Below, one piece after another: positions 15,804 to 41,537 of a stretch of DNA of 64,000 nucleotides. Under the pieces are notes generated by a model. It searched no databases. It saw only the letters and a program-made list of their open reading frames with translations, and was not told the origin of the DNA. How positions within the stretch are numbered: position 1 is the stretch's first letter; every line of letters starts with the position of its first letter. Both the position numbers and the translations under genes were made by a program. This DNA comes from Bdellovibrionales bacterium (GTDB lineage Bacteria; Bdellovibrionota; Bdellovibrionia; Bdellovibrionales; UBA1609), in assembly GCA_965261545.1 (NCBI GenBank), contig CBDHDF010000007.1, positions 448,001-512,000 of the forward strand. Reading direction: 5' to 3'.

Positions 15804-16281
15804 ATTCTCTCCTTATGACCTCAACTTACTATGGTGCGAGTTGATGATTCTATCTCAACAGGGAAATACAGGGGCTTACTCTCAACTTTTAAAAGCAGTT
15901 ATGCCTTATATATTATATATATTCGGAAGAAAGTCACAATCAAATGAGGTTATTGTAGTTTATTGAGAGACCTCTCGGATGACCTCGTTCAAGACGATTG
16001 GGTAGAAAAGCGGTTGCCCGACCCAAGTCCGAGTTCTAATGCTAGTATCCCTGCAACCCATCTCTTTTGAGACTCACTTAAAGTGGGAATCACTTTGAGC
16101 CATTCTCTACCTATTCCCTGAATAGAAATTAAACACTGTATGCCAAAAAATGTAACTTTTTCCAATTCAAGATTGTCTATAGGTCAATATAATATGAAAT
16201 AATATGAAATATGTATTTCCATAATTTTCATGAATATATTACATTTATGAAAGGTTATAATATTTTCTTAATAAAAAATTT

Positions 16282-18378
16282 GTGAGTTCTGACTGAAAGT
16301 AAAATTTGGCTAGGCGGAGGGGATGAAGTTGGCATCCCTTTCACACGACCATAGTCTAGTCTGAGCGAACGGAAAAGAACTCTCTATTATGACAAGGGCC
16401 ACAGCATGAATATTTCATGGAGGGAAACTCTTCGTGGGAAGAGTTCCAGACAAGAGGCAAATCCAAAAATTCAGGCTATACCTGAGATTCATAGCTATCA
16501 GTAGAGTGAAAAAAAATCATGAATATTCAAAATTTTTCTGTACAAAGGAGATCGCCTTGGTATTATTTCAAAATGCACAATCATTTTGACATTTGTCTGA
16601 CCCATAAAGAAATTAAGAGATTCCCTAGAAAGGACCTAGAGAATGAATTTATGAATGTGCAAGAGAAGGTCTTTAAACAGAATGAAGAGATGATCAAAAA
16701 AGACCAAGAAATTATCAAGAAAGACCAAGAAATTATCAAGAAAGACCAAGAGATTCAAGAACTAAAAGAAGAGCTCAACCATCTGAAAAAGGATGTTGAG
16801 TCCAAAGGAATCCAAGAGGTCAATAAGTTGGCTAATGAACCCTCTTCAAAAAAGCCTGAGTGGGATAAGGATGGCAATCCTAAGAAAAAAGGCAAGAAAC
16901 AAAAGAAAAAGAATGGTGGTTCTCGAAAGGGTTCTGGCAACAAGAAGAAGAATTTAACTCCTGATGAGAAAAATACAACTCCCTTAGACACTTGTCCTGA
17001 ATGTGGTGAGGACTTAGAAGATAGAATTGTCTATGAGAGTCCCTCAAGAATCATAGAAGATCTTCCAGATACTCAACAAGCTATTGTATACCAGGAAACG
17101 ACAGAAAAAAAATGGTGTCCTATTTGTCAGAAGATTGTATCTTCAAAGAGTGAGAAAGGGCTTCCAAGCAGTGATTATGGTTTGAACACAATGACCTTAT
17201 GTGCTTATTTTTGGGTGATCACAGCTATTTCCCTTCCCAATATTTCAAAGTATCTCATGAATTTTTTTAGAATGCCTCTGTCAACCTCTGGAATTTCAAA
17301 AATGATGTGTCGCTTAGGTGATATTTTAACCCCAGTTTATGAAGAAATTTTACAAGATGTGAAATCAGGGTCCTGTATTTGGGCGGATGAGACGGGTTGG
17401 CGAATCAGGGGACAACTTCATTGGTTGTGGGCCTTTGCGAACAAAAAATCTGCTTATTATTGGGTAGACAAGTCCAGGGGTAGCGATGTGGTTAATCGAA
17501 TTCTAGGTGATATCTTCTCAGGAGTTTTGATAACTGATGCATGGTCAGGTTACTTTAAAATTGAGAGTTACAAGCAAACTTGTATGGCTCATATCTTTAG
17601 GAAGATACGTAAATTCATAGATGCTCATCCGGATTATAGGTCTATCTTAAAGTTTTACATCAAATTACGTCGAATATTGAGAGACGCTCAGAAACTCAAG
17701 GAAAATCGTGAAGAGTTGGGAGAGTTTGTTTTCAAAAGACGATTGGATCTCTTGAAAAGTCGCCTATCCGAGATTTTAAAATGGAAGAATCCTAACTCCA
17801 TTTTGAAGGAAGTCATTGCAAAAGTAAAACGCCAACAAGAGTACATTTTAACCTTTGTTGAGCATAAAGATGCCACTTCCCACAATAACTATGCAGAGTA
17901 TATTATTAAGAAGGGCGTTTTAAAACGTAAAATTTCAGGTGGAAGTATGTCAATGAAGGGTGCTAAAGCCTACTCTATCCTTATTTCCATAGGTCAGACT
18001 TGTCATTTACGAGGTCTATCCTTTCATGGATTTCTCAAAGATTCTCTGTTGGAATATATTAGGACCGGCAAGCCCATGTCACTTTCCAAATATGAGTTGA
18101 CCCAAGAGCAACAAAGGAAAGCCGTTTAATCTCTTGAGGCAACTCTTTGATAAACCACAAGATAAAGAAAGCAACGATTCGCCCCATTCTTTCGTGCCCC
18201 CCTTTACAGAGTCTAGTCAAACTTCTTCAATGATGTCAGCATCACTTCCACTCTCCTTGGCCACTTGACGTCATGATAAAGAGATATTAGAGGATTGTCC
18301 ACCCATCTGCTAGCAAGCAGGGAAGTTTGACTCCCGCTCCTCCCCCCTAGCCAGATTTTACTTTCAGTCAGAACTCAC
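16282..18378 (+). mobile_element. IS66-family element (single-ORF, ISBst12-like)
   Basis: 33-bp terminal IR GTGAGTTCTGACTGAAAGTAAAATyTGGCTAGG (1 mismatch); 8-bp TSD AAAAATTT at 16274-16281 and 18379-18386. Confidence 0.93.
16519..18129 (+). CDS. IS66 transposase (TnpC)
   Basis: Coiled coil, PSS, CPEC/CPIC zinc finger, ADETGW, ITDAW, CMAH, NNYAE. Confidence 0.93.
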   Translation: MNIQNFSVQRRSPWYYFKMHNHFDICLTHKEIKRFPRKDLENEFMNVQEKVFKQNEEMIKKDQEIIKKDQEIIKKDQEIQELKEELNHLKKDVESKGIQEVNKLANEPSSKKPEWDKDGNPKKKGKKQKKKNGGSRKGSGNKKKNLTPDEKNTTPLDTCPECGEDLEDRIVYESPSRIIEDLPDTQQAIVYQETTEKKWCPICQKIVSSKSEKGLPSSDYGLNTMTLCAYFWVITAISLPNISKYLMNFFRMPLSTSGISKMMCRLGDILTPVYEEILQDVKSGSCIWADETGWRIRGQLHWLWAFANKKSAYYWVDKSRGSDVVNRILGDIFSGVLITDAWSGYFKIESYKQTCMAHIFRKIRKFIDAHPDYRSILKFYIKLRRILRDAQKLKENREELGEFVFKRRLDLLKSRLSEILKWKNPNSILKEVIAKVKRQQEYILTFVEHKDATSHNNYAEYIIKKGVLKRKISGGSMSMKGAKAYSILISIGQTCHLRGLSFHGFLKDSLLEYIRTGKPMSLSKYELTQEQQRKAV

Positions 18379-18519
18379 AAAAATTTTAACAAAACACAAC
18401 TGTAAGATTGACTATTAGTGGTTATTTCTATATTCATTTTTACGACTGATCGGACCCTCATTTATAGAAGCTTGTGGATTCACAATTTTATTCACAATTC
18501 CACCTATGGAAGTGCCGCC

Positions 18520-19361
18520 GATGTGTTGGTGAGTTCCCGGACGTAGGTCCCCATTTAGATCGTCTGTTTTCAAAATTCGTCCTTGAACCCGACTATCCGC
18601 AATCTTGTTTCTATATCTGTTTTCTCACTGATACAGAAACAACCCACATGTAGGCTTCCTCGCTGCTGATCTTTATCCGGAAATCAAGTCTCTCAACTTA
18701 CCGAAACTTACCAAAACTATCAGCCCGTGGAACGAATTTCACACGATCCTATATTTAACTTACTCGGCTCTCTATTTCTCACGCTTGAGATGTTTTTTAC
18801 ATTCAAGCTGGTTTTCTTTAATTATCAGGTACATAAAACAGCTGTGTCTTGCTCACCTATTCAAGGTCTTCACCCTTACGGGATCGCCTTATCCTGTTCC
18901 CCCTGCCGCCCATGTCAACATGCAGTAAATATCAGAGTCATAATTGCTCTATGGAGGTTCGTTGTCCATGGGGCGAGGCTCGTCACCGTTTTTATCAAGA
19001 AAATTTCAAGATTTACGAAGCTATTCAATCTTTTATCAAATTACATTATTTCATATTTCATAACTCCTCCCCCTCAGAAATGCCTAGCCACAGTCATTTG
19101 TAATGTAAAAGGCATAATTAAACTCCTGGGTATTCCTATTCCACCCAATGACTGCGTTACATGCAGCATACTAAGACCACTGAGGTGAGTCAGTTATCCA
19201 CAGACTCATCCATGGTGACGCTGCGGCTATGGCCCTAGGGGAGCCAATAAGGCAGCGCTGCTGTGGATGAGTCTGTGGATAACTGCGACGGAGTCTCCAC
19301 ACAAGTGTGTTGGCAACTCTGTCCTCCGTGGTTTCATGTACAAAGCTCGGATCCTGAAATG
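18520..19361 (-). ncRNA. 3' non-coding region of the IS1111-type element; candidate bridge/seekRNA locus
   Basis: ~840 nt between the recombinase stop and the IR, no sense ORF of 60 aa or more, several hairpins; exact RNA limits unknown. Confidence 0.5.
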
Positions 19362-21608
19362 CTAGGCTCCCATCTTCTCCAAATTGGCTTGGAAAGCATA
19401 TTCCTTATAGCCACGGTTGTCCCGCAGCATCGCATAGCAGATACAGCTCATCTTGCGAGCCAGGGCCACAACAGCCTTATTGGTTCCCCTCCTCGACTCA
19501 ACCTCTAAGGCCCATTTCCGAACAGGATCATCACATTTAGTGCTCTTTTTGAGCCAAGCCCGCGCCCCATGGATGAGATAGCGACGTAATATCTCATTGC
19601 CACTTTTGGTGATGGAGCCCATCATACGAGTGTTTGCTGAAGAGCTAACACTGGGAACTAAACCCAGGTAGCTGGCAAACTTACTGGCATCATCAAAACG
19701 ACTGATATCATCCACCACTGCCACCATAGCCGCAGCCGTGAGAAGACCAACTCCAGGCAAAGTTCTCAATTGTTTTACAGACTCTTTCTCCTGAACTAAA
19801 AACTCAATCCGGTGGGTGATAGACTTTTCTTGCTGTTGGAGGGCTTCGGCCTGACCGTACAATTCCTGAAGCAATGCCGTTTCCTTAAGCCACCACACCC
19901 CTCTGCCTCTGCGTTAAGCTATTTCTTTTAAAAGAACTCCCAGCCCTTTTGATAGACCTTTCATAGCTTCTTTTGAAGTGCCTCCTCTTCTCCATTGAAA
20001 TCTTCATCAGCAACTTTATCTGCTTCCTAAATTTCTGATAGAGCCCCGCAACAAAAAGGGGGATGCTATCCATTATGAAATCAAGAATCAGTTTAAAGTT
20101 AGGTTTTTTGTAGTCATTTTTTACCAACTGATTCACACTGTCTTCATCCTCATTTATGCTCATTTGAATCTTTGTATAATTGAAGAGCCAAAAATAAGAA
20201 TACAGCTCTTGCAATATTCCATTAAGGCTTGTTGAGTGCCACTGCTCCATTTTCATTGTCGATGTAAAATCACGAAATGTCGTTTCTATTTCCCAACGAC
20301 GAGAGTAAAGAGCAACCATATCCTTCTTGTCCAAGGAGCCATGCGGAAGATTAGTGGCCAAAACAGAGAACTCCCCAGTCTTTGGGTTTTTATACTTATA
20401 GAGATGAATGACCACCCCCTCAATAACCATTCGTGAATACCAACCTGGGCCATTAAATAAATTTACGATGGGGATAAAAGTAGAGCCTCGCTTACAACGC
20501 GCAATAACCCTCCTTTAAAAGATCTTTAGAGCGAGGAAGTGCTAATTGGTCGCCATCTATGGCATAGATATAAAAGCCATGAAACGTTTTTCTCAATGGT
20601 TCGTAGTCTGTAATCAGAGATTCAAAGATATTTTTAAAAAATAGGTAAGAAATACTTTGACGTATCTTGCTGAGACTGCTTTTGACTGGCATGAGAAGCA
20701 GGTCACCAAAATGAGTCCATACCGTCTTAAGAGCGATTTGGTAGCCTTCGTAATTTGTTCCGGAAATAAGATAGATAATAGTAAAAAAGAAAATTTGAGG
20801 ATTAAATTTTCGATTCCTTTTTTGTTTTTCTGGATCGACAAGGTGCTCTGGCTTGAAGGAAGAATCAAGTTTTGGTAGAATAAAATGGTCATCTGTGACG
20901 CGAACTCGTCATTTGGGGGCTTTCGAGATCAATATTGGATTGCATGTGACTTACTCCTTGGTTGAGGGTTGGGTGTAAAATAAAACAAGTCTTATTCTTG
21001 TCGATTTATCTAATAATTTCAAGAGATTTTTCTTAAGGAAACGGCATTGATTCCTGAAGAGTGCTGCGAATAAAAGGATTGGGCACTTTGGAAATAGTCG
21101 CTGGTGCTTTCACCCAAAACTGATTTGCTCCCACGGGAATCGTAAGACCCTGTTCCCTCAAAAGACCTCTGATGTGGTTTGTTAAACTCACCCGTGTGCC
21201 TACAGTAAGTTCACGGGAAACGAGCAGACTCTTTATGTCTCTGGAACCAGGACTACGGAGATGAACCTCACAATCACTATCAGGGTTCAGGCGCAGAAAA
21301 GTATTTAAAGCCTTGGCATCCCGCTCGTCGGTTTTCTTGCCGCTGATACCTATGCCCCTAAACTTGTTTGGGTTGATGATGTGAACAGTGTGACCCAAAT
21401 CCTGTAATTTCTGGACATAGGGGTTAACCCCTCCTGTGGCCTCAATGGCTATCTCACAGGGTTCTCTATTTGAGAAATAGCGAGGAAGATTCTTCGTCTG
21501 AATACAACTGACTCTAGGGACTCCTTGAACCATTTCTCCCTTTTGATCTGTAGCATAAAGAACTGAGTTATTCTTGTGAAAATCGACTCCTATGTATAAC
21601 TTGGGCAT
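19362..21608 (-). pseudogene. IS110 recombinase split by an IS4 insertion
   Basis: N-part IGVDFHK/IEATG/KTDERDA; C-part LPGVG, YLGLVPSVSSS, YLIHGARA; removing the IS4 plus one TSD restores STLQELYGQ (352 aa). Confidence 0.9.
19872..21049 (-). mobile_element. IS4-family element with decayed transposase
   Basis: Perfect 18-bp IR CAATGCCGTTTCCTTAAG; 10-bp TSD ATTCCTGAAG; fragments with YAIDG and YSRRWEIETTFR in different frames; only 1178 bp long. Confidence 0.9.
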
Positions 21609-21709
21609 TGCCGCTCCTTTCGTTTGTGAGCCTTTTGAGCTCGGTTTTTGTGTGGATAAGTATAACAACTTAGACCACGATGAAAAGGGGCGGCACTTCC
21701 ATGCCTCCA

Positions 21710-22179
21710 GAAGAAAGTCACAATCAAATGAGGTTATTGTAGTTTATTGAGAGACCTCTCGGATGACCTCGTTCAAGACGATTGGGTAGAAAAGCGGTTG
21801 CCCGACCCAAGTCCGAGTTCTAATGCTAGTATCCCTGCAACCCATCTCTTTTGAGACTCACTTAAAGTGGGAATCACTTTGAGCCATTCTCTACCTATTC
21901 CCTGAATAGAAATTAAACACTGTATGCCAAAAAATGTAACTTTTTCCAATTCAAGATTGTCTATAGGTCAATATAATATGAAATAATATGAAATATGTAT
22001 TTCCATAATTTTCATGAATATATTACATTTATGAAAGGTTATAATATTTTCTTAATAAAAAATTTTAACAAAACACAACTGTAAGATTGACTATTAGTGG
22101 TTATTTCTATATTCATTTTTACGACTGATCGGACCCTCATTTATAGAAGCTTGTGGATTCACAATTTTATTCACAATTC
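21710..22179. repeat. 470-bp direct repeat, copy 2 (intact; shows the empty IS66 site)
   Basis: Matches copy 1 with a single AAAAATTT. Confidence 0.93.
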
Positions 22180-32901: not shown

Positions 32902-34617
32902 TTAATGGTAAGTCATAATTTCCATATGGCGCAAGCCTGCCATCTGGCCTCTTGAAACAAGCATAACTTCAGCAGCCATATTGTTCACAAAAACTTGATG
33001 AGAGCCAGCCTTCGTCAAGGTTTCCACCACGACGCCATTGACAACAACATCAATGGCAATGGCATTCTTGCCAAACCACATGGATCGAATATCGACAATC
33101 ACTTTCTTAATGGGCATCACTCGACCTAAAGTAAAGGAGTGGGTGGTGCCTCTAAAAAGGTTCATATCTCCTTCAAATATGTTAAAGATGCGGAGGTGGT
33201 GATCGTGATGACGACCGTCGTGCTCGTGGTGGCCACCTTCAAAGGAATGATCATGGTGGTGGTGGCCATCGTCGCTTTCATGATAATGGCCATCATGGTG
33301 GTGGCCGCCTTTTCCAGGTTCTTCGGGAGTCATATCCTCATCTTCACCTTCATCGGGAATATCCTCTGGGGGAAGATCATCCGCATCATCGGGAGTCTCT
33401 TCGGGAGACTCTCCTGGCTCCGTGGGAACGAGATCCTCCGGGGGGAGATCATCCGCATCATCGGGAGTCTCTTCGGGAGAATCTCCTGGCTCCGTGGGAA
33501 CGAGGTCCTCTGGGGGAAGATCATCCGAACCATCGGGAGTCTCTTCGGGAAAGTCTCCTGGCTCCGTGGGAACGAGGTCCTCTGGGGGAAGATCATCCGA
33601 ACCATCGGGAGTCTCTTCGGGAAAGTCTCCTGGCTCCGTGGGGACTAGATCCTTTGGGGGAAGATCATCCGAACCATCGGGAGTTTCTTCGGGAAAGTCT
33701 CCTGGCTCCGTGGGGACTAGATCCTCTGGAGGAAGATCATCCGAACCATCGGGAGTCTCTTCGGGAAAGTCTCCTGGCTCCACTCCGCAAGAAAGGAAAT
33801 TGTGAGACACTTCATGGATAGAGTGAGCTGCAAATTGAAACGCTTCGTAGCTATCTGGAAACTCAGAAGAAGCATTGTTCAATCGACCCTTAATATATTG
33901 GAGTTCATCAATCACACAAGCAAATCGGCTTGCAAAAATAGAGTCCATAAGATCGGTGATAGTAAACTCTACGAACATAACGAAAGTCACAAGAAGAAGC
34001 TCTGGAGGCCCCATGGGATGATAAATTGCATGACCCGAGTCTCCATCCATAGATGATGTGGTCAACTTGGAAATCATCATATCAAGTTGCCACTTGGCAA
34101 ACTTTGCTTGATTCTTTTCTAACTGAAGACTTTCCTCCAACTCACAATCGTAGCAATCCCCATATTTGGTGATCTTCGAGTCCAGTTCCACAGAAGCAAA
34201 GGTAATAAACCTGTAAGCTTCAAAAAGAAAGTAATTCAATGCCTTTTCAACCTGAAGATTCGCCGAAGCATTGTCCATAATCACATGAGTCACTTCAGAA
34301 ACTCTATGTATGGCCTTGCTCGTAAAAGTATGACTGTAATAAGGCTTGATATTCTGGAGGGATATTTCAATTCCCCTCATTAAGGCTTTGACAGAGCCCT
34401 CGTAGTTCCCATAGATAAGGTGCCTCTGAGCCTCTTTATGGGCACGCCTGAGAATTCTTAATTGTTGACGATACCAAGCGCCAGTATCACCTTGACTATT
34501 GCGAGCGACGAGTGCTTTGATACCCTCCCTAGGTGAGTAAGAATCAATAACTTCATCAGCCATAGATACATTAAAACCTGCAAAAATTAAAATAAGCGAT
34601 ATAATGATCGATTTCAT
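32902..34617 (-). CDS. secreted protein with 24-aa acidic repeats and a His-rich tract
   Basis: ATG 34617 with ggagg RBS and signal peptide MKSIIISL..SMA; 6x EPGDFPEETPDGSDDLPPEDLVPT; His cluster; C-terminal beta-rich domain. Confidence 0.8.
   Translation of the reverse strand: MKSIIISLILIFAGFNVSMADEVIDSYSPREGIKALVARNSQGDTGAWYRQQLRILRRAHKEAQRHLIYGNYEGSVKALMRGIEISLQNIKPYYSHTFTSKAIHRVSEVTHVIMDNASANLQVEKALNYFLFEAYRFITFASVELDSKITKYGDCYDCELEESLQLEKNQAKFAKWQLDMMISKLTTSSMDGDSGHAIYHPMGPPELLLVTFVMFVEFTITDLMDSIFASRFACVIDELQYIKGRLNNASSEFPDSYEAFQFAAHSIHEVSHNFLSCGVEPGDFPEETPDGSDDLPPEDLVPTEPGDFPEETPDGSDDLPPKDLVPTEPGDFPEETPDGSDDLPPEDLVPTEPGDFPEETPDGSDDLPPEDLVPTEPGDSPEETPDDADDLPPEDLVPTEPGESPEETPDDADDLPPEDIPDEGEDEDMTPEEPGKGGHHHDGHYHESDDGHHHHDHSFEGGHHEHDGRHHDHHLRIFNIFEGDMNLFRGTTHSFTLGRVMPIKKVIVDIRSMWFGKNAIAIDVVVNGVVVETLTKAGSHQVFVNNMAAEVMLVSRGQMAGLRHMEIMTYH
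33355..33780. repeat. 6 x 72-bp intragenic tandem repeat
   Basis: catcgggagtctcttcggga unit recurs every 72 bp. Confidence 0.92.
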
Positions 34618-40775: not shown

Positions 40776-41537
40776 CTACTTTTTTTTCAATCTCATAATT
40801 CTTGTTATAAAACTGGACTCTCCCCGAACTGAAACAGGCTCAACAACAACAACCTCCATCTCCCGAATGACTCCAATATAACCATTGTTCCTGCCTATTC
40901 TCTCATCTTTTTCCAAAATAAAATACTTGTTATCAGGAGACCGAAACATAGCCTTTGGATGGGTGGAATTCCATAAAATGCCAATAAGTTGGATCTGCTC
41001 AATATCCCACTTCCCCAAGGGAATCGACGGACCGGCTCCTTCACCGAATTCTGCCTCCCCCGGTTGAACTTGCTGATAAGGCTTAAAAGGATTTCGCCGG
41101 CCTTCCCCATCATATCTAAAGGGCTGGAGCAATGGGAACACTTCCTGCTCCCAAGCCTGAGCTGGCGAAAGTGAACCTGCCACAGGTCCTCCTCCAGAAG
41201 AAGGAGAAGTGCCCGTTCCGGGGGGGGGTGGAATATCTGTGCCAGGCGGAAGAGGCACGCCTCCTTCGGGGGGAGGCTCATTGGAAAAATCTGGCGGAGA
41301 AGGAGGAGGCACGCCTCCGCCGGGGGGAGGCTCATTGGAAAAATCTGGCGGAGGTGGAGGAGGCTCATTGGAAAAGTCTGGCGGAGGTGAAGGAGGCACG
41401 CCTCCGCCCGGGGGAGGCTCATTGGAAAAGTCTGGCGGAGGAGGCAAAGGGTCTTCCTCCTGTTGAGCCACAAGCTCACAAATTCCTAAAAATAAGAGAA
41501 GAAATGAAAGTGCAAAGGTCCACAAAATCGACCTCAT
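40776..41537 (-). CDS. pilP: type IV pilus protein PilP
   Basis: RRNPF, LIGILW, IGRNNG; position between pilO and pilQ. Confidence 0.88.
   Translation of the reverse strand: MRSILWTFALSFLLLFLGICELVAQQEEDPLPPPPDFSNEPPPGGGVPPSPPPDFSNEPPPPPPDFSNEPPPGGGVPPPSPPDFSNEPPPEGGVPLPPGTDIPPPPGTGTSPSSGGGPVAGSLSPAQAWEQEVFPLLQPFRYDGEGRRNPFKPYQQVQPGEAEFGEGAGPSIPLGKWDIEQIQLIGILWNSTHPKAMFRSPDNKYFILEKDERIGRNNGYIGVIREMEVVVVEPVSVRGESSFITRIMRLKKK

Follow-up and report, generated by a model that had tools for sequence, protein, structure and literature searches.

A candidate IS1111-derived, RNA-guided insertion lineage with two bridge-RNA-like modules and long variable target duplications

A 64,000-nt stretch of a Bdellovibrionales genome (hereinafter the window) contains an IS1111-type recombinase gene followed by an unusually long non-coding region, and this raises the question of what that region encodes and how it bears on the insertion of the element. 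Comparison with two intact copies from the same genome delimits the element, whose principal parts in the window are:

18499-21709, minus strand: whole IS1111-derived element
21689-21709, minus strand: left end, TGGAGGC followed by a 14-bp subterminal inverted repeat (IR)
18499-18519, minus strand: right end, the 14-bp IR, AGG and then TGGA, which copies the first four bases of the left end
19362-21608, minus strand: DEDD/Tnp recombinase gene, 352 aa in the intact copies, interrupted here by an IS4-type element
19872-21049, minus strand: IS4-type element (PF01609) splitting the recombinase ORF, with a 10-bp target duplication; unrelated to the finding

The element is 2023 bp long when uninterrupted; the intact copies differ mutually at 1 base, and each differs from the right part of the window copy at 1 base. 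The 352-aa ORF, which the first-pass annotation had proposed could be rebuilt, is natively uninterrupted in both of these copies (C7:185640-187662 and C11:752300-754322). Its product combines the RuvC-like DEDD and Tnp domains (PF01548, E=4e-15; PF02371, E=7e-23), conserves D9, E56, D94, D97, and the catalytic serine S261 in an alignment of relatives, and has an IS621-like fold (E=6e-14; TM about 0.62), which, along with the subterminal IRs, confirms the original recognition of an IS1111-type recombinase. The perfect 14-bp IRs (21689-21702 and 18506-18519) lie within the 7-17 bp range of the IS1111 group, and the left end has the 7-nt terminal extension of that group; the right extension comprises the customary 3 nt plus TGGA, and the initial delimitation at 7 and 3 nt beyond the IRs is hence corrected to an element with TGGA at both ends. 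The right-end TGGA, present in 31 of 32 aligned tails, is element-derived, given that in 3 of 10 cases the host copy has no GA. The predicted 10-nt circle junction fits these ends but is absent from four short-read contig sets of one sample; neither a circle with abutted ends nor an empty-site joint was found there, in contigs that drop rare forms. In these contigs, whose sample is possibly the source sample, both element ends are joined to the flanks seen in the window and in C11. One set (run X3) additionally has a left-end flank (L001:3882) that is absent from the assembly and may represent a further insertion in part of the population. The IS4-type element has many copies in the genome, and the one at 19872-21049 is without ~230 bp found in most of them; the IS4, IS66, and IS110 family labels used here rest on Pfam.

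A protein search with the recombinase returned 750 matches at E<=1e-30; 40 sequences were aligned, and 16 genome and 59 metagenome loci were fetched. The named host records are mostly Bdellovibrionales, Bacteriovoracaceae, and Pseudobdellovibrionaceae, with one Chloroflexota bin. Loci with recombinases at least 38% identical have common ends of the form C^TGGA-N3-ATGG ... CCAT-N3-TGGA (^ marking the junction), and 30 related elements with recombinases 38-55% identical formed the comparison set; duplicate fetches were removed before counting, the covariation tests leave out L039 and L041 (the same element as L038), the tail alignment is without L036 and L079 (large insertions), and the tree without L046. 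The sister elements L033, L065, and L066 have tails of 277-332 nt with one RNA module. Their junctions are canonical (C^TG...AGA^CGAT) and use the same CGAT target, and an anchored repeat was seen at none of these three loci, whose flanks are short. No new full element was recovered from the order (301 genomes), the phylum (401 genomes by protein, 151 by RNA model), or the genomes of two families (237 and 34), these wider searches adding three RNA-model matches to right-end remnants that have neither a left end nor a repeat. The viral collection yielded no relative by protein, and 0 of its 25 motif matches had a recombinase; the best matches in the plasmid collection, 32-33% identical, are ordinary IS110-type elements. 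The genome itself has three full copies and three short right-end remnants (G000:C2:566047-566227, C2:686885-686943, and C11:725713-725772), and L153, L154, and L155 are likewise right-end remnants; the remnants carry no gene, left end, or repeat, some keep the whole of the RNA module closest to the right end (module 2, below), and two of those in this genome derive from a diverged sister element.

The recombinase stop codon ends at 19362 and is followed by a non-coding tail of 863 nt to the element end, or 842 nt to the IR; the ~840-nt 3' non-coding region that first drew attention is thus real, and is mostly conserved structured RNA. A long region downstream of the gene is expected of IS1111 elements, but the tails of this clade span 476-1002 nt (median about 590; 30 distinct elements) as against mostly 250-420 nt in more distant IS1111s, which makes the long tail a lineage trait. 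The window element lies at the long end of this range because ~370 nt at the 5' end of its tail, which are lineage-specific and not conserved, precede the conserved part; the corresponding stretch measures 3-146 nt in 27 of the other 29 elements. This region includes a further piece:

19167-19347, no strand assigned: 181-nt accessory hairpin piece with 34-bp arms and two TTATCCACA boxes

At 84-89%, the piece resembles the 3' end of an ISL3 element; part of it is also shared with IS21 elements of the genome, the hairpin occurring beside IS21 genes as well. By BLAST, the boxed hairpin (19188-19285) has ~130 genomic occurrences, including the 3' ends of ISL3- and IS21-like elements, and is a shared accessory module; the ISL3 and IS21 labels are our assignments by sequence recognition, and we take the TTATCCACA boxes to be DnaA-box-like. 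The boxed hairpin was found in none of the other clade members, a few of which have single near-matches to TTATCCACA, and we accordingly rejected the boxes as a clue to the duplications described below. A decayed passenger gene was also rejected: none of the three ORFs tested in the tail has a Pfam match, and a comparison of 32 tails showed no conservation of long open frames. The reservation that most of the region might be a decayed gene or an unrelated insertion therefore does not hold for the conserved part, though 181 nt are indeed shared with an ISL3 element. An Rfam scan of the tail gave nothing at gathering score, only chance hairpin matches, and a promoter scan found 4 sites against 1.8 expected.

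The conserved part of the tail comprises two RNA modules:

18839-18993, minus strand: RNA module 1 (putatively extra), with loop 1 guides matching the left junction at 18958-18952 and 18929-18923 and a loop 2 guide matching the right end at 18860-18854
18575-18742, minus strand: RNA module 2 (the putative ancestral bridge RNA), with covarying stems and guides
18707-18701 and 18685-18678, minus strand: target-loop guides of module 2
18655-18649 and 18596-18590, minus strand: donor-loop guides of module 2

Each module is ~150-170 nt long and consists of two hairpins flanked by short conserved loop strands; in place of the single RNA with one target and one donor loop of bridge/seek RNA systems, there are thus two modules and four loops, as against the one module of the sister group. 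Compensatory changes keep 94% of the stem cells paired in each module, a level reached in 0 of 500 shuffles, while slid controls have 29-48% paired; the structures were derived from the same alignments. A covariance model of module 2 finds the single modules of L065 (E=3e-8) and L066 (E=4e-7), neither of which was in its training set, and module 2 is apparently the ancestral IS1111 bridge RNA, with module 1 as the extra component. The same model (R1) reaches module 1 weakly (3 of 30 elements, E=0.01-0.6), and module 1 may be a duplicate of module 2, given a likeness that is weak by sequence and lies mainly in the layout and the GATCACGGATAR motif. In folding comparisons with shuffled sequences, module 1 of this element does no better than the shuffles (z=0.06), while module 2 has a z of -3.3; in module 2, pairing is also possible between the two invariant TCG motifs. 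The enlarged or multi-module RNA region envisaged by the first-pass annotation is hence conserved and structured, with loops that covary with donor and target, and the two checks it suggested, a covariance model and guide covariation, respectively yielded computational evidence for covarying stems and for guides tracking donor and target.

The guides were evaluated by permutation across the 30 distinct elements, restricted where necessary to those for which the end in question is available, with p-values that ignore relatedness. In module 2, the 5' strand of loop 1 reads WTCGG, the reverse complement of the target CCGAW, and its 3' strand reads ..CC-GGATAG or ..CCG-GGATAG; from the register of this target loop, the form of the left junction (NC^TG or CC^TG) is correctly predicted in 24 of 24 cases, with 6 changes on the tree. 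The bases preceding this register match the left flank at -5 to -3 more often than expected (31 matches, 22 expected, p=0.005). The 5' strand of loop 2 agrees with the first three bases of the left end (64/72, null 47), and its 3' strand, ATAR-T-CG, equals the right end plus the target core; in the sister group, the equivalent strand exactly matches the canonical right junction ATAGA^CG. The extension of the right-target guide of module 2 fits moderately, with L054 off the exact register. In module 1, loop 2 (ATAGGTG here) equals the right end including TG in 28 of 30 elements, the A/G change in the right end having only 2 changes on the tree, and loop 1 has an invariant CCA on one strand, with (C)CTG on its 3' strand tracking the left flank (18/22, p=0.008) and not the right end (p=0.9). 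These loop matches suggest that module 2 reads the target and the circle junction, and that module 1 reads both junctions of the element once it is inserted.

The two motifs that had initially been noticed, CCTCCA (18957-18952) and ATAGGTG (18860-18854), are where they were said to be and occur once each; they arise jointly in 0.6% of 20,000 base shuffles and singly in about 7.5%, so the accompanying caution that such short matches could be chance was justified, and, as they are weak alone, the case rests on the cross-family covariation. Both are guides of module 1, but they sit in different loops of it and form no single donor loop; in CCTCCA, moreover, the CCA is invariant, but the extension beyond it covaries weakly (p=0.08). 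The loop best fitting the circle junction is the one in module 2 formed by 18655-18649 and 18596-18590.

The most unusual trait of the element, omitted from that early account, is the long direct repeat of host DNA that flanks it:

21710-22177, no strand assigned: left-end copy of the direct repeat, 468 bp
15926-18498 (15926-16281 and 18387-18498), no strand assigned: right-end copy, identical to the other minus a later IS66-type insertion
16282-18378, plus strand: IS66-type element inside this copy of the long repeat, with an 8-bp duplication
15921-15929, minus strand: intact guided target site CTTC^CGAAT at the far end of the repeat

The IS66-type element, with an 8-bp duplication of its own, inserted into one repeat copy and hence arrived after the long duplication had formed. 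Each of the genome's three full copies is flanked by such host-DNA repeats, which measure 468 bp in the window and 78 and 512 bp at the other two loci. The 512-bp duplication, at L002 (G000:C11:752300-755300), lies at the degenerate end of an array with a 36-nt repeat, which we take to be CRISPR by sequence recognition; it took in three CRISPR repeats and the trailer, and its copies now differ in spacers, one having lost some. Adjoining copy L001, at G000:C7:187663-187880, is a 217-bp tandem duplication that contains the 78-bp repeat together with the left end's first 108 bp. The host stretch duplicated in the window encodes a 58-aa ORF (15989-16165 and 21773-21949) without a Pfam match, which presumably resembles the start of another transposase. 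Tandem repeats that probably belong to protein-coding genes also occur at 192-1466, 33290-33853, and 41215-41442 of the window (periods of 75, 72, and 54-87 nt).

Both ends are available for 27 distinct insertions of the clade, 13 with at least 500 bp on both flanks and 14 with shorter ones. Among the former, 10 have long repeats, of 78, 88, 126, ~128, 240, 302, ~340, 468, 512, and 517 bp, so that the absence of target duplication typical of the IS1111 group does not hold here; L032, L064, and L078 have adequate flanks and no repeat. One of the 14 short-flank loci has a 13-bp repeat, and in the other 13, with their short flanks and possibly collapsed assemblies, none was seen; L054 and L055 have a common left flank and different right flanks. 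The repeats are spread over six different elements across the tree and six assemblies, with 7 of the 11 coming from two genomes, and it is very likely that the two modules and the long repeats characterize the lineage as such. The two ends of the repeats differ in their sequence preference: the host copy at the left junction reads CCGA(A/T) in all 11 (genome background about 0.001 per bp), whereas the site of the right joint is loose: of the 10 readable cases, 7 have GA there (background 0.067) and none has CCGA, the TGGA-like distal sites being TTGA, TAGA, AGGA, CAGA, and ATGA. An identical two-sided repeat was found in 0 of 10 copies of the other IS110 element in the genome, 0 of 8 single IS1111 elements (three of which had a flank under 400 bp), and 0 of 6 G234 copies; in two of the G234 copies, repeats at 83-86% do lie close to both junctions. 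Matches of 137-138 bp beside three copies of the genome's other IS110 were dismissed, being that element's own left end. Our searches found no independent empty allele.

These sequence comparisons point to what is probably a distinct IS1111-derived, RNA-guided lineage, with two bridge-RNA-like modules, that inserts with a long variable target duplication. As in an ordinary IS1111, the left junction consists of the left arm of the target, the donor core TG, and the left end, while the ordinary partner junction, i.e., the right end plus CG and the target right arm, is absent, and the right end keeps TGGA and abuts upstream host DNA. In the scheme that we propose, module 2 would pair the circle junction with the short target C^CGAW or CC^GAW, the RNA setting the register, and the recombinase would join the left end to the target on one strand, as in an ordinary IS1111. 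The reciprocal joint would not be made at the target; instead, the right end including TGGA would be joined 13-517 bp upstream, at a loosely chosen site that usually has GA, either by a second one-sided strand transfer or by a host polymerase that extends the free target 3' end and switches template onto the element at GA, both routes being compatible with the data. At each joint, an element 3' end would then meet a host 5' end, the two joints being on opposite strands and separated by a long stagger, and fill-in from the free host 3' ends would duplicate the stretch between the two sites. For excision, the ancestral RNA would need right-hand target sequence, which the resulting right junction would not have; the right target arm now being far away, a duplicated module adapted to the new junctions would make sense, and module 1, retuned to the left flank plus TGGA and to the right end plus TG, would guide circle formation. 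We consider this scheme as a whole somewhat more likely than not, and give an even chance to its most far-reaching reading, under which a bridge lineage gave up reciprocal exchange in favor of one RNA-programmed joint, a replication-built duplication, and a second guide RNA for excision.

An alternative that retains the same element and its duplications, but has module 1 act in integration by holding the right end and choosing the TGGA-like distal site, with excision occurring otherwise, would accommodate the resemblance of the distal sites to TGGA (GA in 7/10), where the CCA/UCCA guide of module 1 could pair; as the other guide of that loop tracks the left flank, with no clear match upstream of the distal sites, and three distal sites are without GA, we regard it as unlikely, if a serious contender. 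Less probable still is a canonical insertion with repeats produced later by host recombination, whether through unequal crossover between nearby copies or through re-integration, into an empty sister chromosome, of an aberrant circle with flanking DNA. There are reports of one-sided IS110 reactions, of partial circles, and of adjacent tandem expansions (bioRxiv 10.64898/2026.08.14.744561), one of our copies has the 217-bp tandem with a partial left end, and three insertions are without repeats; however, such a route needs a second guided target, and CCGA occurs at 0 of the 10 readable distal sites. It also fits poorly with the low copy number (3-4 per genome), with repeats that are the rule (10/13) and in part short (13, 78, and 88 bp), and with the TGGA that follows the right end (31 of 32 tails) at the position occupied by the target CGAT in the sister group. 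A third reading takes the tail for one ordinary bridge RNA with decayed or unrelated DNA as filler, and attributes the repeats to assembly artefacts; it has in its favor the ~370 unconserved nt and the 181 nt from another element's end, but is largely refuted, and highly improbable, in view of the compensatory stems and covarying guides of both modules, the tail's lack of Pfam matches and conserved long ORFs, the private IS66 insertion in one repeat copy and spacer loss in another, and the recurrence of the repeats in six assemblies.

Set against known systems, the element apparently descends from an IS1111 bridge system and departs from it in three usual features, viz., the lack of duplication, the 7+3 ends, and the one RNA. 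With the IS1111 elements that use seekRNAs, it has in common the DEDD/Tnp recombinase, the subterminal IRs, the 7-nt left extension, and a guide region downstream of the gene in which the right-hand guide precedes the left-hand one in each loop (PMC11187229). According to that source, target duplication is not characteristic of ISEc11, ISKpn4, and ISPa11, their right extension is 3 bp, and the region deleted from ISEc11 was about 200 bp (PMC11187229); unlike these, the present element has two modules, a right end in TGGA, and duplications of 13-517 bp. It resembles IS621 in the protein fold and in a two-loop RNA pairing target and donor (PMC11208160, PMC13626964), but the recombinases are 23% identical, and IS621 has its RNA upstream, a shared core, and no duplication (PMC11208160, PMC13626964). 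IS621 uses one RNA for insertion and excision alike, and in excision this RNA is described as spanning both junctions and needing the right target arm (PMC13626964). Here, the donor and target cores differ (TG vs CG), and the second module appears to read the inserted junctions.

A precedent for the proposed one-strand integration and stepwise joints is CazIS110-1, for which copy-out with one-strand transfer and single-strand integration with joints made in separate steps are reported; it puts both joints at one target, and the main text mentions no duplications or direct repeats (bioRxiv 10.1101/2025.10.25.684509). The closest match in product is found in IS1549 and IS1634, whose direct repeats of 8-514 bp almost equal the range of this lineage and had no proposed mechanistic model as of the cited study (PMC2266710); the likeness is in the product only, as these elements have unrelated DDE transposases and no guide RNA, unlike the DEDD/Tnp recombinase and guide-fixed repeat end seen here. 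Expanded IS110 loci show one-sided donor matches, adjacent tandem repeats, and, at one locus, several donor-binding loops, but represent occasional locus growth rather than a lineage usually inserting between two copies of host DNA, and their description makes no mention in its text of direct repeats, TSDs, or IS1111 (bioRxiv 10.64898/2026.08.14.744561). In the literature that we searched, neither long target duplications nor bridge RNAs in tandem were described for IS110/IS1111 elements, though supplements, subscription papers, and ISfinder may mention them.

IS110/IS1111 recombinases are regarded as scarless, reciprocal, and one-RNA systems, and are under development as genome editors. If the proposed account is true, the unmatched cores, the half-reciprocal joining, and the separate RNA modules for entry and exit would illustrate the reach of the enzyme and how direction may be split between RNAs. 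The lineage would then be a bridge system, found in nature, that divides direction between two RNAs, as well as the first insertion element with long repeats whose guide can be read, and, because one end of the repeat is guide-fixed and reprogrammable, would offer a handle on how long variable target duplications form. Pipelines seeking scarless empty sites would tend to miss such elements. On the host side, the repeats would keep an intact copy of the region that was hit and permit clean loss of the element by recombination.
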